Virus record (IMG/VR): IMGVR_UViG_3300002062_000002
Origin: a virus
Strand: one strand, 5' to 3'
Length of the DNA stretch: 27,706 nucleotides
Shown here: positions 2,270-24,179 of the stretch, one piece after another
Position numbering within the stretch: position 1 is the stretch's first letter
Layout of the letters: each line of letters begins with the position of its first letter
Position numbers and translations under genes: made by a program
Notes under the pieces: model-generated
The model's database searches: none
Told to the model about the DNA's origin: nothing
The model's input: the letters and a program-made list of their open reading frames with translations, nothing else

Positions 2270-3544
2270 TCACACCTCTAAGCTCTGTAATAGAATTATA
2301 AGTATGGGAATTTGATAAAATTGAGTAAGTGGACTCCACGATCTCACGTCTTCGGCTAACATGATAAGATGAGTTGTATCTAATGACTTACCGCTAAACC
2401 ACATGGAAAGATATCTCTCCAATAAAGATTTTTTATCTGTATCGTTATAGAAATTAGACGACACAATATAACTACCCCCTAACGTAGAAGGCCAGACCAT
2501 CGGCACTTCCATGTCAACAGTGACATCGTCGGTAATTTCTACCTGCCCCTCTACTGGAATACGTACGTGCCTAATGTTAGTCCAGGCTATACCACCCAGT
2601 AGGGGTTGGGTAGCATAGTTAACCACCGCACTGTTTGCCATGACCTGCGTAAACGGCATGGTATACAGCTCACCGTCTGTAATGTAGTCCCATAGAGTGG
2701 TGACCCGCTGCCCCGGGACATTGCTACAATTTAAGGCTCTGGGTAGTCTTTTCCAATTGACGGATAACTTACGAAGTACCTTAATGAGGTGAGGGTCATA
2801 AACCAATCCGTCGATGGGGTCATTAAATGCAATTGTATTAGATTCAACGTCAAAGAACATATCTTCATATGTTTGTGTAAGGCTCTCTATGAGCTTTTTA
2901 ACCACAACCCTACGACTTATGTCATCATCGGTTATAAGTCCGTTGTAGCCGCCTCTAAGGCGATCCCTGTCAAAGTGATTGACTTCCACAGTTTTATCGT
3001 TTAGATTGGTAGTGAGTTCATCGTTAACGTAATCGATTAACTTATAGGTTATCTCAAACGCAGATTCCTTATAAATTGTTTTTCTACTGACGGACAATAC
3101 CGAAAAGAGCGCACCTCTACCATCGCCAACATCGGCTATAAATACATCTCCTTCATTGGGTGTTATTCCGGGGTATAATTGAGCGGTTCCAGTTACCTCA
3201 AATAAGGAGGTTTCCGAATTTTGACTTTGACTTAATGGGTCGGTTACCTTAAGTTCTAAATTTATAATTTTGTGGTATTGTTGATATGCCCCTTCCTGAC
3301 TAAGGTCTAGCGTATTACCTACCTGGTCACTGCCCAATACCTGCCCGTAAAAGTCTACATGCCAACTTGACCCGGATATAAACGTCAATAATGAAGAATG
3401 ATCGATTTCTTTACTGTTCACTACATTACCACCGTATTTTGATACACCGTCACGAGGGCGAACTATATCTGTATTACGGATGGGGGCAATGGCATCTGGG
3501 ACAACAACGACACTGTCTGCTGGTGTATCTGTGATAAGTGGCAT
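2270..3544 (-). CDS. Virion structural protein, phiKZ gp99-like (probable neck/head-closure protein)
   Basis: 424 aa. The motif PNEGDVFIADVGDGRGALFSV resembles T4 gp14-type head-closure proteins. AGGAG Shine-Dalgarno; synteny. Confidence 0.7.
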   Translation of the reverse strand: MPLITDTPADSVVVVPDAIAPIRNTDIVRPRDGVSKYGGNVVNSKEIDHSSLLTFISGSSWHVDFYGQVLGSDQVGNTLDLSQEGAYQQYHKIINLELKVTDPLSQSQNSETSLFEVTGTAQLYPGITPNEGDVFIADVGDGRGALFSVLSVSRKTIYKESAFEITYKLIDYVNDELTTNLNDKTVEVNHFDRDRLRGGYNGLITDDDISRRVVVKKLIESLTQTYEDMFFDVESNTIAFNDPIDGLVYDPHLIKVLRKLSVNWKRLPRALNCSNVPGQRVTTLWDYITDGELYTMPFTQVMANSAVVNYATQPLLGGIAWTNIRHVRIPVEGQVEITDDVTVDMEVPMVWPSTLGGSYIVSSNFYNDTDKKSLLERYLSMWFSGKSLDTTHLIMLAEDVRSWSPLTQFYQIPILIILLQSLEV

Positions 3545-21796: not shown

Positions 21797-22264
21797 TTAC
21801 TTTAACGTATGTAATTCATCGATTGCAGTTTGCTTGTCGGCTTCTATTTCCATAGACACCTCAAACATATGATCACAAATATCTCTCGGTAGCTCTAAAA
21901 ACTCGGTAAGGCTAACGCCAAATACGGAAGCTATTTTTCGCCTACCAAATTTCCTAATTGTGTCATAAAGTAAGCTTCTAGAACACACCTCTTCTGCGGG
22001 ATGTAATTTGATATAGTCCAAACCGTGGCCGGAACTACCGTATTGGCATATATCAAAATCTTCATCGTACGCCTCGGTTAGTAGTTGCCTGATCGTAAGG
22101 TGATCTAATCCTTCACACTCATCGAATAGTTCATCTAAATTAGAGGGAGGGTTACCCCCCTCCTGCGCACGCCTAAGTTGTTTTTTACCAAACCTAGGAT
22201 GCATTACATGACCAGTTAGATCTATAGGCTCGTTTGAATGGCCAACTGGACCCGCTGACTGCAT
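21797..22264 (-). CDS. Tail/baseplate assembly chaperone second ORF (T4 gp51/GpT-like); possibly expressed by -1 frameshift
   Basis: 155 aa with an FGVSLTEFLELP motif. No Shine-Dalgarno, and it overlaps the upstream ORF by 43 nt in the -1 frame. Confidence 0.6.
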   Translation of the reverse strand: MQSAGPVGHSNEPIDLTGHVMHPRFGKKQLRRAQEGGNPPSNLDELFDECEGLDHLTIRQLLTEAYDEDFDICQYGSSGHGLDYIKLHPAEEVCSRSLLYDTIRKFGRRKIASVFGVSLTEFLELPRDICDHMFEVSMEIEADKQTAIDELHTLK

Positions 22265-23724
22265 AGGGTAAAAAACGTAGTAGTAAGATCTAATGGTACA
22301 TATGGGACAACGTCATTACTTCGCACAATAACGACATCCGTACCCGACCCTTCCTTTTCATCTCCCAATCGCATGTCACAACTAGGGCATTTATCATTAG
22401 GGTAACCCACAATAGAAACGGTGGTCTCCGATATAAACGCCCCCACGCCATTTAAGATGGCATCACGTACATGCTCTATCCCAGACAGGTCAACCATAAA
22501 ATCATCAATTACATCACGGTCCGTAATAACATCCAATGACTCAACGTCATCGTTATTTAGATCGCCAATGGTGACTTTACTTATCCAGTGGGAATACTGA
22601 CGTAGATTTGATAACCTTCCCTGATCTCGTATATACGCATTTCTCTCGTCTCCCTTGAGGGGAACCTTAAACGCGCGGTCGACCATGCTAACAATGCCAT
22701 CAACCCACTTAAACCCACTTTCTTCATATTCTAAAATAGAAGGTACGGTTAAATGAATATTGATATCACTGCCGTTATCATGCGTAGCTGTGATCACGTC
22801 ACCTTTAAAGCTAAACTCGTCACTGTACGCCTTTAATGTTTCTTCGGTACGGGCCACGTTACGTTTAGACATTTCTTTTAATTGTTTATCGCTCAAACGA
22901 GACATATCCGTAACGCGAATACGTGATAGGTTAATTTTACTAACCTCAATGTGACTACAATTACCAGGATCTGCCGCACAGGGCTCACGTAGTGTATACC
23001 CATCCGGATACATTGTGCAGAGTATACCCAATACGAGCGAAGGTATGTCGGTAGATTTAATTATCTGCTTTAGCTCGTTGGGGTCGTTCGTACCCAAGTT
23101 AGTTTCATAGATATGTCCCAGTACAAAGTTAATCAAATAGCTTTGTATGTAAATGGAACTGCTACTGAATATCATGCCATTGGTAAGGCGACCTAGGCTA
23201 ATCTTCTCTTGAGATACTCGACGCTGTAGCTCTAGTATGCTACCATTTGACGGCGCTTTAAGTGTTACCCAGCCACCGGTATGGAAAAGTGGAATGGTCA
23301 TAATTGTACCCAGACCTAGACGAGCACGCACTTTCATTAGGCCGCTTTCACCCGAGAGGTTACCTGCTTTATTGCCACCCTTTAGACGTGATGTGGTTAG
23401 GGGCTTATCATCGAACGTGGGACGGTTGGTCCATTGACCCCCAGTGTCTTTTATTGCATCGTCAAACACCCCACCGGAGAGTGTATGTCGCATGGCTTCT
23501 TGTACTGCCGCCCCCCAACTTTCAACTTCTTCTCCGCCAACACCTAGGTTAGGCAATTTATTTATAATGGCAGTAAAGTTATCGACATTGGCCTTTAACA
23601 GGTTCAGTGCATTTGTTGCATTAGCTTGACTCGCCGATTTAGAAACATCCGATTTAATAGGTAATTTAGGATCTTGAAAGTCTACCTCGGGGGCAGGTTC
23701 AATGGGACCGTTTTCATCAATCAT
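22222..23724 (-). CDS. Baseplate hub/tail assembly chaperone-like protein (phiKZ gp77-like)
   Basis: 500 aa with IPLFHTGGWVTLKAP, MYPDGY, Cys pairs (CAADPGNC, CPSC) and a near-terminal TTFF, reminiscent of T4 gp26-type proteins. Confidence 0.65.
   Translation of the reverse strand: MIDENGPIEPAPEVDFQDPKLPIKSDVSKSASQANATNALNLLKANVDNFTAIINKLPNLGVGGEEVESWGAAVQEAMRHTLSGGVFDDAIKDTGGQWTNRPTFDDKPLTTSRLKGGNKAGNLSGESGLMKVRARLGLGTIMTIPLFHTGGWVTLKAPSNGSILELQRRVSQEKISLGRLTNGMIFSSSSIYIQSYLINFVLGHIYETNLGTNDPNELKQIIKSTDIPSLVLGILCTMYPDGYTLREPCAADPGNCSHIEVSKINLSRIRVTDMSRLSDKQLKEMSKRNVARTEETLKAYSDEFSFKGDVITATHDNGSDINIHLTVPSILEYEESGFKWVDGIVSMVDRAFKVPLKGDERNAYIRDQGRLSNLRQYSHWISKVTIGDLNNDDVESLDVITDRDVIDDFMVDLSGIEHVRDAILNGVGAFISETTVSIVGYPNDKCPSCDMRLGDEKEGSGTDVVIVRSNDVVPYVPLDLTTTFFTLCSQRVQLAIQTSL
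22270..22276 (-). other. Candidate -1 ribosomal slippery site G-TTT-TTT
   Basis: In-frame ACG TTT TTT ACC; the -1 frame reads TAC CCT ATG directly into the 155-aa ORF. Confidence 0.55.
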
Positions 23725-24179
23725 ACCTTTACCTCTTTACATTCATCTAATACGCGACCGCATTCTTGGGTGATGCTGTCGACAATGCCCAATGTGGTAT
23801 CTGTGAACTTTTGCTGCCAACTCTCAAAGCCATTGGCTAAGTCAATGGAAGTAGTCATTACTTCCATCTCATTGGGTGAGTTTGACAATTCTTGTATCTT
23901 TGCATTGCATTCACTCGTTAGGGTTTCTAGTTCTACGTTCAGCGCCGATACATCCTTGCCAAGGACACTAGTTAACGTATTAATCTTAGCCACGTCTAGC
24001 TGATCGCCATATAGCGCATATGTATCTTTAACGAGTGCACGTACCTGTAGTGCACTTAACAGTAAACGCTTAGAGTCATCACGAATAGCACATAGCTCAG
24101 AAATAAAATCTTTCTTTTGATTATTAACTGGGGGTTTTGGACGATACTTCTTTTTAGGTGGACGATTGGCATTTGCCAT
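23721..24179 (-). CDS. Hypothetical coiled-coil protein with basic N-terminus
   Basis: 152 aa with AAGGAG Shine-Dalgarno and an ATGA 4-nt overlap with the next gene. Confidence 0.75.
   Translation of the reverse strand: MANANRPPKKKYRPKPPVNNQKKDFISELCAIRDDSKRLLLSALQVRALVKDTYALYGDQLDVAKINTLTSVLGKDVSALNVELETLTSECNAKIQELSNSPNEMEVMTTSIDLANGFESWQQKFTDTTLGIVDSITQECGRVLDECKEVKV

Follow-up and report, generated by a model that had tools for sequence, protein, structure and literature searches.

Comparison of 72 related loci supports, with a probability of about 0.9, a −1 frameshift across the cg18/gp77 family of nucleus-forming jumbo phages, which would join this protein to the product of the small open reading frame (ORF) behind it. 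The DNA that we analyzed (the window) is a stretch of 27,706 nucleotides from IMG/VR virus record IMGVR_UViG_3300002062_000002. The first-pass annotation, made from its letters alone, had proposed that a −1 frameshift joins two ORFs here and was not aware of an earlier description; we likewise found no frameshift described for gp77/cg18 in the literature and GenBank records searched.

The larger of the two ORFs (P0001; 23724..22222, minus strand) encodes 500 amino acids and is, judged by its sequence, a copy of phiKZ gp77, the Chimalliviridae core gene cg18. It matches phrog_4585 with an E value of 1e-105, and tblastn with this ORF retrieved 227 jumbo-phage records. The cg18 assignment was taken from the supplement of PMC10299810, and the core-genome table gives only "hypothetical protein." Upstream of the large ORF, a 152-aa ORF without a PHROG match (23721..24179, minus strand) occupies the position of phiKZ gp78, in a gene order shared with phiKZ, D6, Xoo-sp14, and others. 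Since the TGA of this ORF and the start codon of the large ORF share bases (ATGA), the pair is probably translationally coupled. Toward its 3′ end the large ORF reads GAT CTT ACT ACT ACG TTT TTT ACC CTA TGC, with a six-T run at 22275-22270. The small ORF (P0002; 155 aa, 22264..21797, minus strand) matches PHIKZ076.4 and lies in the −1 frame relative to the large one. Its ATG (22262..22264, minus strand) stands two codons past the T-run, after TAC CCT, with no Shine-Dalgarno sequence. The ORFs, their frames, the run, and the ATG are thus as first described. Before the run the −1 frame has 12 open codons (the earlier count was about ten), and from the slip site onward it has 159. A slip at the heptamer G_TTT_TTT (22270..22276, minus strand; 0 frame ACG TTT TTT ACC) would join the protein after Phe485 to a −1-frame extension of 157 aa plus stop, Y-P-M-Q...K (22270..21797, minus strand), which contains the 155-aa ORF. 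The predicted fusion, with the junction ...TTTFF/YPMQSAG..., comes to 485 + 157 = 642 aa, as the earlier estimate had it. The 0-frame tail past the slip site, TLCSQRVQLAIQTSL plus stop (22222..22269, minus strand), is dual-coding with the −1 frame.

We then compared the junction among relatives from isolates and metagenomes, where it could be read at 72 loci, 61 of them unique. Homology to the small ORF was found in the −1 frame at all 72 loci, and the offset never varied. From the T-run onward the −1 frame is open for 150 to 186 codons at every locus other than L058, which ends with its contig, and the 0 frame stops 10 to 19 codons past the run at all 72. An in-phase T_TTT_TTN heptamer is present at 57 of the 72 loci; the full set comprises T_TTT_TTT (35 loci), T_TTT_TTC (21), T_TTT_TTG (1), A_TTT_TTT (9), G_TTT_TTT (4), and other heptamers (2). 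Because it recurs at 72 related loci, the arrangement is more than chance.

The T-run, that of the window included, sits within a conserved PLDxxxxFFTL motif, and divergent phages conserve the site and its frame relation more closely than the encoded protein alone would demand. TTT, and not TTC, encodes the first Phe at 60 of the 61 unique junctions; in the rest of these genes the share of TTT is 33%. The codon before this Phe ends in T at 48 of 61, against 23% expected, and does so across five amino acids. Start codons are scarce where an independent gene would need one: at 40 of the 48 canonical junctions, no ATG, GTG, or TTG lies between the slip site and the GHVxxxxFG motif of the extension, and the ATG of the window is not conserved, even among its closest relatives. 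In phiKZ, the first 80 codons of the −1 frame hold no ATG, GTG, or TTG, and the annotated start of PHIKZ076.4 falls 171 nt inside the region of homology; the predicted trans-frame junction there is ...IPIDMLSTFF/YFGGLEVKPDGVVNDLR. Taken together, the constant offset, the long open frame, the heptamer, the dearth of start codons, and the TTT bias strongly support a frameshift throughout the family.

Two further observations bear on this reading. An error of assembly or homopolymer length was considered and rejected: the same frame relation holds at 72 loci, both frames are conserved past the run, and the exact 500-aa and 155-aa window proteins are recorded from 4 contigs, so the length of the T6 run is not a one-off assembly error. 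Among the longer proteins searched we found no in-frame fused form. In a profile search of 1.84 billion proteins, the best 150 of the 1751 related clusters all end where the profile ends and measure 453 to 645 aa. The absence of in-frame fusions is only weak evidence, and it is expected if both isoforms are needed.

The proposed slip site of the window departs from that of most relatives. The six-T run of the earlier proposal stands, but the heptamer is not canonical: it reads G_TTT_TTT, where relatives have T_TTT_TTT, so that X is not T, although the U_UUU tetramer and re-pairing in the A site are kept. We consider it likely, from the sequence and its relatives, that the window phage nevertheless shifts frame here to give proteins of 500 and 642 aa. 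Most ribosomes would stay in the large ORF until its TAG at 22222 and so produce the protein of 500 aa, which follows directly from the reading frame. A minority, as the comparative evidence suggests, would slip back one base at ACG TTT TTT ACC. The A-site tRNA-Phe would re-pair perfectly on UUU and the P-site tRNA-Phe on GUU with a first-position mismatch, and the slipped ribosomes would read on in the −1 frame as far as 21797, adding a helical extension of 157 aa to the first 485 residues. Since the first T of the heptamer is lost, the efficiency of frameshifting is probably below that of the relatives. In E. coli, a U_UUU tetramer by itself needs a strong stimulator to cause a shift, and rates across shifty tetramers range from 0.26 to 5.6% (PMC4066793). 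The weak hairpin pointed out in the first-pass annotation (GUCAGC/GUUGGC; 22241..22259, minus strand) does exist, but it is neither significant nor conserved, and we rejected it as a stimulator: the 75 nt past the run in the window fold no better than shuffled sequences (z = −0.17), and no downstream structure is conserved among the nearest relatives. Minimum free energy folds downstream of the run were heterogeneous across 13 loci.

A non-canonical heptamer followed two codons later by an ATG is also what one would see if frameshifting had decayed in the window phage and the 155-aa ORF were made alone from the ATG at 22264, giving two proteins and no fusion, like T4 gp26 and gp51. Ribosomes would then initiate there either by binding weakly and directly or after terminating 40 nt downstream. 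Across the family, 9 of 13 non-canonical heptamers but only 2 of 48 canonical ones have an ATG before the conserved motif (raw Fisher p = 2e-6). However, this association is carried by one clade; with only 3 to 4 independent contrasts, on which a sign test is not significant, it fails correction for relatedness. The ATG itself does not look like a start. No Shine-Dalgarno-like 4-mer occurs in the 20 nt before it, whereas the flanking genes carry clear ones, AAGAGG and AAGGAA. Among the nearest relatives only L007 shares it, and L008 and L010 have CTG in its place; as a start it is therefore not conserved. In L007 it stands beside a perfect T_TTT_TTT, and with CTG in the other two it resembles an ordinary Met/Leu residue. 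The window has also lost neither its six T's nor its open −1 frame. Independent expression of the small ORF is therefore unlikely, and we prefer the frameshift for the window as well.

A related possibility, to which we give still less weight, is that the window lineage is passing from one way of making a short and a long protein to another. A synonymous change of ACT to ACG would recently have removed the first T of an ancestral T_TTT_TTT, and with an AUG two codons downstream, the extension may be starting its own expression. This would be a route from a frameshifted chaperone gene to the two-gene arrangement reported for T4 gp26 and gp51. The Psa21/D6 clade has a similar pattern, a non-canonical heptamer and an ATG about 20 codons downstream. 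Near-identical contigs, in which variation at the G of the heptamer might have shown, were not found among viral or metagenome contigs.

The same fusion could in principle arise in the RNA. The phage multisubunit RNA polymerase might stutter on the T-run and add one U to some transcripts, so that the fusion would be read in a single frame. Such slippage is a known outcome of homopolymer T-runs, and enterobacterial genes are depleted of UUUUUUU in every frame, perhaps owing to transcriptional slippage (PMC4066793). Against this, 21 of the 72 loci have only six T's followed by C, and the window too has only a T6 run. To our knowledge, runs of 6 to 7 T's are shorter than those that slip efficiently in transcription. 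Moreover, the run keeps the exact X_XXY_YYZ phase and, where it is longer, is always lengthened at its 5′ end, as slippage by the ribosome requires; the phase is weak evidence, since the conserved Phe-Phe-Thr also constrains it. Polymerase stuttering is thus quite improbable, and slippage by the ribosome remains the favored source of the longer protein.

What the two isoforms do is less certain. The first-pass annotation took them for the phiKZ-like equivalent of the lambda G/GT pair. We regard it as plausible but unproven, at roughly even odds, that they form a short and a long assembly chaperone for the tail or baseplate hub; remote similarity suggests that they would act together in this way. 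An AF2 model of the 500-aa protein (pLDDT 86.5, pTM 0.88) retrieved T4-like "baseplate hub assembly" proteins from BFVD with E values of 1e-4 to 1e-2 and a TM score by target of 0.45 to 0.55; several dozen such T4-type proteins were the only named fold matches there. PF12322, "gp26 family baseplate hub assembly chaperone" in NCBI naming, is matched by 2 of 57 relatives, with a best E value of 1.1e-5. An hhalign comparison with the gp26 alignment gave a probability of only 13.7% (E 0.002, 55 columns), with a colinear C-terminal match ending in FFxL. The cg18 and gp26 families each have two mid-chain cysteines and a C-terminal CxxC. The window protein itself has no Pfam match and none to PF12322 at an E value of ≤1. 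A search of the whole records of five relatives for PF12322 gave no match, but as the control search was equally silent, this result is uninformative. Profile searches of PDB sequences gave nothing below an E value of 0.19, Foldseek gave nothing in the PDB at an E value of ≤0.001, and a wide VIA search returned only helical noise (best Z, 6.2).

The models also indicate how the isoforms would differ. Residues 480 to 499 of the 500-aa protein are helical, and the 0-frame tail past the slip site makes up most of this C-terminal helix of the short isoform. Within this tail, T486 and L487 do not vary in one alignment of relatives (A1), and L487 is nearly invariant in another (A2). The extension matches phrog_12109 and is modeled as helical (pLDDT 80). 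Its conserved motifs are GHVxxxxFG, ExYxxxYGI, and EFLxLPRD (alignment A3), and its fold matches only its own family in BFVD.

Known tail assembly chaperone (TAC) systems share the logic of this arrangement more than its setting. The closest parallel in the slip site is P2 E/E+E′: the P2 record annotates a −1 site at T_TTT_TTG (GGT TTT TTG), bearing out the earlier statement that P2 slips on a six-T run, and the same heptamer occurs in our relative L001. In P2, too, the 0 frame stops a few codons on, the short product is the major one and the long product the minor one, and the phage has a contractile tail. However, the 91-aa P2 E is encoded immediately before the tape-measure gene T, whereas the protein here has 500 aa and is encoded among polymerase and helicase genes, and the window heptamer begins with G. 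Lambda G and GT, reportedly described by Xu, Hendrix, and Duda in 2004 (cited in PMC10274946) as tail assembly chaperones of siphophages, also have a common N terminus and a longer form made by a low-frequency −1 frameshift, and neither form is expected in the virion. In contrast, lambda slips on G_GGA_AAG and its small proteins adjoin the tape-measure gene; we found no sequence or fold similarity between G/GT and the window proteins. For T4-like phages, Vladimirov, Gautam, and Davidson (2022) reportedly proposed gp26 and gp51 as TACs, and a citing paper has the short and long forms coming from two separate genes without a frameshift. The cg18 protein shows a remote resemblance to these in its BFVD fold, its colinear C terminus (strand, P-x-CPxC, FFxL), and its four-cysteine pattern; it differs in that gp26 has 208 aa and encodes FF as TTC TTT, and the window protein falls below every Pfam threshold. 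Finally, Vandenendeviridae and Andersonviridae have a TAC frameshift on a GTTTTT motif (PMC12846349). The case for it was likewise made by comparative genomics: no genome interrupts the −1 frame, the 3′ end of TAC-N carries a conserved T-run, and the ORF behind it has been mis-annotated as a hypothetical gene of its own. That protein, however, belongs to another family, is much smaller, and adjoins the tape-measure gene.

Two defining features of TACs are lacking. Short isoforms usually have about 90 to 250 aa, and the one here, at 500 aa, is 3 to 5 times larger than known TAC-N proteins. The gene also lies far from any tape-measure gene, as the first-pass annotation had noted. Its neighbors in the window are the gp78-like ORF, a gp79-like gene, and genes for the virion RNA polymerase β subunit, a DNA polymerase, a 237-aa virion-protein-like product, and a helicase; phiKZ and five other phages have the same context, a block of virion and non-virion RNA polymerase, DNA polymerase, and helicase genes. 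A frameshift that is real but serves something other than tail assembly is thus a serious, if somewhat less favored, alternative: cg18 might act in the nucleus-forming life cycle, for example, as a zinc-binding assembly or nucleic-acid factor, and its resemblance to gp26/gp51 would then be too distant to imply a common function. The size of the protein, the weak hhalign score, and the lack of a Pfam match or an informative annotation fit such a role, as do the neighbors. On the other side stand the T4-type proteins as sole named fold matches, the cysteine pattern and C-terminal FFxL held in common with gp26, and a short and a long form with a shared N terminus, produced through −1 slippage on a T-run, a hallmark of tail chaperones that is present here in gene architecture and conservation. 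A TAC would bind the tape-measure and tube proteins, be needed for tail assembly, and be absent from virions; weak hints of such absence are that the phiKZ record flags gp79, not gp77, as structural, and that the Goslar virion paper nowhere mentions gp81, the cg18 homolog. The equivalence with G/GT thus survives in the predicted frameshifted pair and the remote gp26/gp51 likeness, but not in size or gene position. We know of no other TAC candidate for the phiKZ-like family.

If the frameshift is true, the six annotated GenBank records that we inspected, including that of phiKZ, give the small ORF (PHIKZ076.4 or its counterpart) a wrong annotation. The annotated start of this ORF would be arbitrary and the product truncated; the ORF would be the C-terminal domain of a second isoform. 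If the chaperone assignment also holds, the phiKZ-like family would gain the assembly chaperones for tail or baseplate hub that have been missing from it, a pair linked by descent to T4 gp26/gp51, which reportedly gave up frameshifting. The rule of a "conserved frameshift in tail assembly genes" would then extend to a protein of 500 aa whose gene is remote from that of the tape measure. The gene belongs to the core set of all nucleus-forming jumbo phages and is annotated only as a hypothetical protein; its T-run would offer a simple handle on jumbo-phage tail assembly.

On the minus strand of the window, a 500-aa ORF (23724..22222, stop TAG at 22224-22222) carries a run of six T's at 22275-22270, where it reads GAT CTT ACT ACT ACG TTT TTT ACC CTA TGC. 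A 155-aa ORF (minus strand, ATG at 22264, stop at 21797) overlaps it in the -1 frame, which reads GTT TTT TAC CCT ATG across the junction and is closed 12 codons 5' of the run. There is no Shine-Dalgarno (SD)-like tetramer ahead of this ATG; the large ORF has an SD-like AAGAGG, and the next downstream gene has AAGGAA. All that the first-pass annotation had stated about the sequence (ORFs, frames, six T's, ATG, and missing SD) holds on rereading. A slip is predicted after Phe485 and would produce a protein of 485 + 157 = 642 aa. Since the identical 500-aa and 155-aa proteins are recorded on four contigs, the six-T length is reproducible.

PHROG comparison places the large protein in phrog_4585 (E 1e-105) and the small protein in phrog_12109; Pfam gave no match for either. 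By tblastn, the large protein is found in 227 jumbo-phage records, with every match below 36% identity, and the small protein in 68; a family profile search of 1.84 billion proteins returned 1751 clusters (50% identity). The phiKZ counterparts are gp77 and PHIKZ076.4. Gp77 is Chimalliviridae core gene cg18, listed as "hypothetical protein" (supplement of Prichard et al. 2023, PMC10299810). The window and six annotated phages share the gene order gp78-like, gp77-like, small ORF, flanked by virion-RNAP/gp79-like genes and helicase or polymerase genes. In 6/6 annotated phages, the gp77 homolog has another small ORF ahead of it, with the same orientation. In the window, this upstream ORF (152 aa, gp78 position) has no PHROG match, and its stop overlaps the large-ORF start as ATGA (23721-23724, minus); in Xoo-sp14 and D6 the overlap is also 4 nt. 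This ORF is a possible third partner for the pair.

We then compared the junction across the family, using the 6 annotated loci, 66 IMG/VR loci, and the window. One locus (L070) is without the large ORF, and the junction was readable in 72 loci, or 61 unique junctions, window included. A PLDxxxxFFTL motif is conserved in the large protein, 10 to 19 codons ahead of its stop. In all 72 loci, the small-ORF homology sits in the -1 frame, which is open for 150 to 186 codons from the T-run (one is interrupted by a contig end). In 0-frame phase, the heptamer is T_TTT_TTT in 35 loci, T_TTT_TTC in 21, and T_TTT_TTG in 1; the non-canonical forms are A_TTT_TTT (9 loci), G_TTT_TTT (4, the window among them), A_TTT_TTC (1), and C_GTT_TTT (1). 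The first Phe codon is TTT at 60/61 junctions, against 33% elsewhere in the same genes (binomial p 4e-28), and the codon before it ends in T at 48/61, where the same genes predict 23% (binomial p 1e-19); shared ancestry among the loci makes both p-values inexact. The T-ending codon spans five different amino acids. The nucleotide pattern at the junction exceeds what the protein sequence calls for. The most degraded site in the set, ACC GTT TTT ACG (Val-Phe, only five T's; L062:3835-3845), still has its -1 frame open over 176 codons, conserved motifs included, and is a useful natural test case.

Could the small ORF simply be initiated on its own? The -1 product has a conserved GHVxxxxFG 19 to 39 codons past the run, followed by ExYxxxYGI and EFLxLPRD. 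No ATG, GTG, or TTG lies between the run and GHVxxxxFG in 40/48 unique canonical junctions, and in phiKZ there is none in the first 80 codons. Independent initiation is therefore ruled out as the family-wide explanation, while a -1 shift at the run can account for it. Transcriptional slippage by the phage RNA polymerases is a minor alternative, 6 or 7 T's being a short run for it. Protein searches found no natural in-frame fusion of the two genes; this absence is weak evidence, and it fits a need for both products. Taken together, we put the probability of a family-wide -1 frameshift at about 0.9. The nearest mechanistic match is phage P2 E/E+E', whose RefSeq record places a -1 shift at GGT TTT TTG, with the E stop seven codons further on; one relative in our set has the P2 heptamer, T_TTT_TTG. 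The same kind of comparative argument was recently made for the tail assembly chaperone locus of Vandenendeviridae (PMC12846349).

In phiKZ (L004:2915-3414, the reverse complement of 71442-71941 in NC_004629), the annotation gives PHIKZ076.4 a length of 80 aa and a start at locus position 3172. Counted from T_TTT_TTT in gp77, the conserved -1 frame stays open through 167 codons. The annotated start lies 171 nt inside the homology region, and GHxxxxFG and ExY, both conserved, are lost from the annotated product. The other five annotated phages have comparably arbitrary small-ORF starts, and 0/6 of the records join the two ORFs.

The nearest relatives of the window (L007, L008, and L010, about 50% identity, in a well-supported clade with it) have ACT TTT TTT ACC where the window has ACG TTT TTT ACC, a synonymous difference that removes the first T of the heptamer. 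At the window site, the A-site tRNA-Phe would still re-pair perfectly, and the P-site tRNA-Phe would meet GUU. In E. coli, U_UUU and U_UUC are among the few shift-prone tetramers; they require a strong stimulator, with which shifty tetramers reach 0.26 to 5.6% (Sharma et al. 2014, PMC4066793). A weak hairpin had been proposed downstream of the run. No stimulator emerged from the folding analyses: the fold of the 75 nt 3' of the run is no better than shuffles (z = -0.17), no conserved structure was found there in the window's clade, and folds from 13 loci are mutually unrelated, so the hairpin does not count as evidence. Of the three relatives, L007 has the ATG two codons past the run together with a perfect heptamer, and L008 and L010 have CTG there; by this comparison, the codon looks like a Met/Leu position rather than a conserved start. 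We consider a -1 frameshift in the window likely, probably at lower efficiency.

An ATG precedes the conserved motif at 9/13 non-canonical versus 2/48 canonical junctions (raw counts; raw Fisher p 2e-6); on the tree, however, the non-canonical state changes only four times, leaving just 3 to 4 independent contrasts. As a lead, separate initiation may partly replace frameshifting in the non-canonical loci. A_TTT_TTT or G_TTT_TTT with a tendency to ATG, about 20 codons past the run, is seen in the Psa21/D6 clade (L005, L056, L057, L063, L064, L066, and L072); L049 and the window also combine a non-canonical heptamer with ATG.

An AlphaFold2 model of the large protein (57 sequences) has pLDDT 86.5 and pTM 0.88, with the slip position where the final helix (residues 480-499) begins; the extension is modeled as helical (pLDDT 80, pTM 0.51). 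PDB sequence-profile, Foldseek PDB, and wider structure searches found no similar solved structure. The BFVD list opens with about a dozen gp77 homologs, and from rank 21 there are many entries of about 250 aa that are named as T4-like baseplate hub assembly proteins or hub subunits (E 1e-4 to 1e-2, TM by target 0.45-0.55). Pfam PF12322 is matched by 2/57 relatives (best E 1.1e-5), not by the window protein. With the T4 gp26 family alignment, hhalign gave a probability of only 13.7% (E 0.002, 55 columns); the columns are colinear and specific, covering a hydrophobic strand, P-x-CPxC, and the C-terminal FFxL. T4 gp26 ends in KEFFELL (L073:7803-7830, gene 26 3' end), which aligns with the FFTL slip motif. 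Its FF codons are the non-slippery TTC TTT, with a stop almost immediately after, and may be what is left of an ancestral slippery site. Both families have two mid-chain cysteines plus a C-terminal CxxC (C82, C84, C187, and C190 in T4 gp26). In the 500-aa protein, the four cysteines (residues 249, 256, 446, and 449; window ~22378-22980, minus) are nearly invariant in the 57 relatives, a pattern suggestive of a structural zinc site that would link the mid-protein region with the C-terminal CPxC ribbon immediately preceding the slip site. That the family is remotely homologous to gp26/gp51 is likely, not established.

The first-pass annotation had read the ORFs as a candidate G/GT-type tail or baseplate chaperone pair far from any tape-measure gene. 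That position is correct, and together with protein size it argues against the role; the gp26/gp51 likeness favors it. The T4 family carries the NCBI name "gp26 family baseplate hub assembly chaperone," and T4-like phages are described as making a short and a long chaperone from two separate genes with no frameshift (Vladimirov, Gautam and Davidson 2022, as cited in PMC10274946 and PMC12846349). A non-structural role is weakly hinted at by two observations: the phiKZ record labels gp79, not gp77, as structural, and gp81, the Goslar homolog of cg18, goes unmentioned in the preprint on the Goslar virion structure. We infer a chaperone role for the pair.

Searches of the full-text literature turned up no report of frameshifting in gp77/cg18 and no account of a tail assembly chaperone for this family. 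The window contributes a naturally weakened variant of the heptamer. The main value of the finding lies in correcting an annotation family-wide and in proposing the missing chaperone pair of the nucleus-forming jumbo phages.
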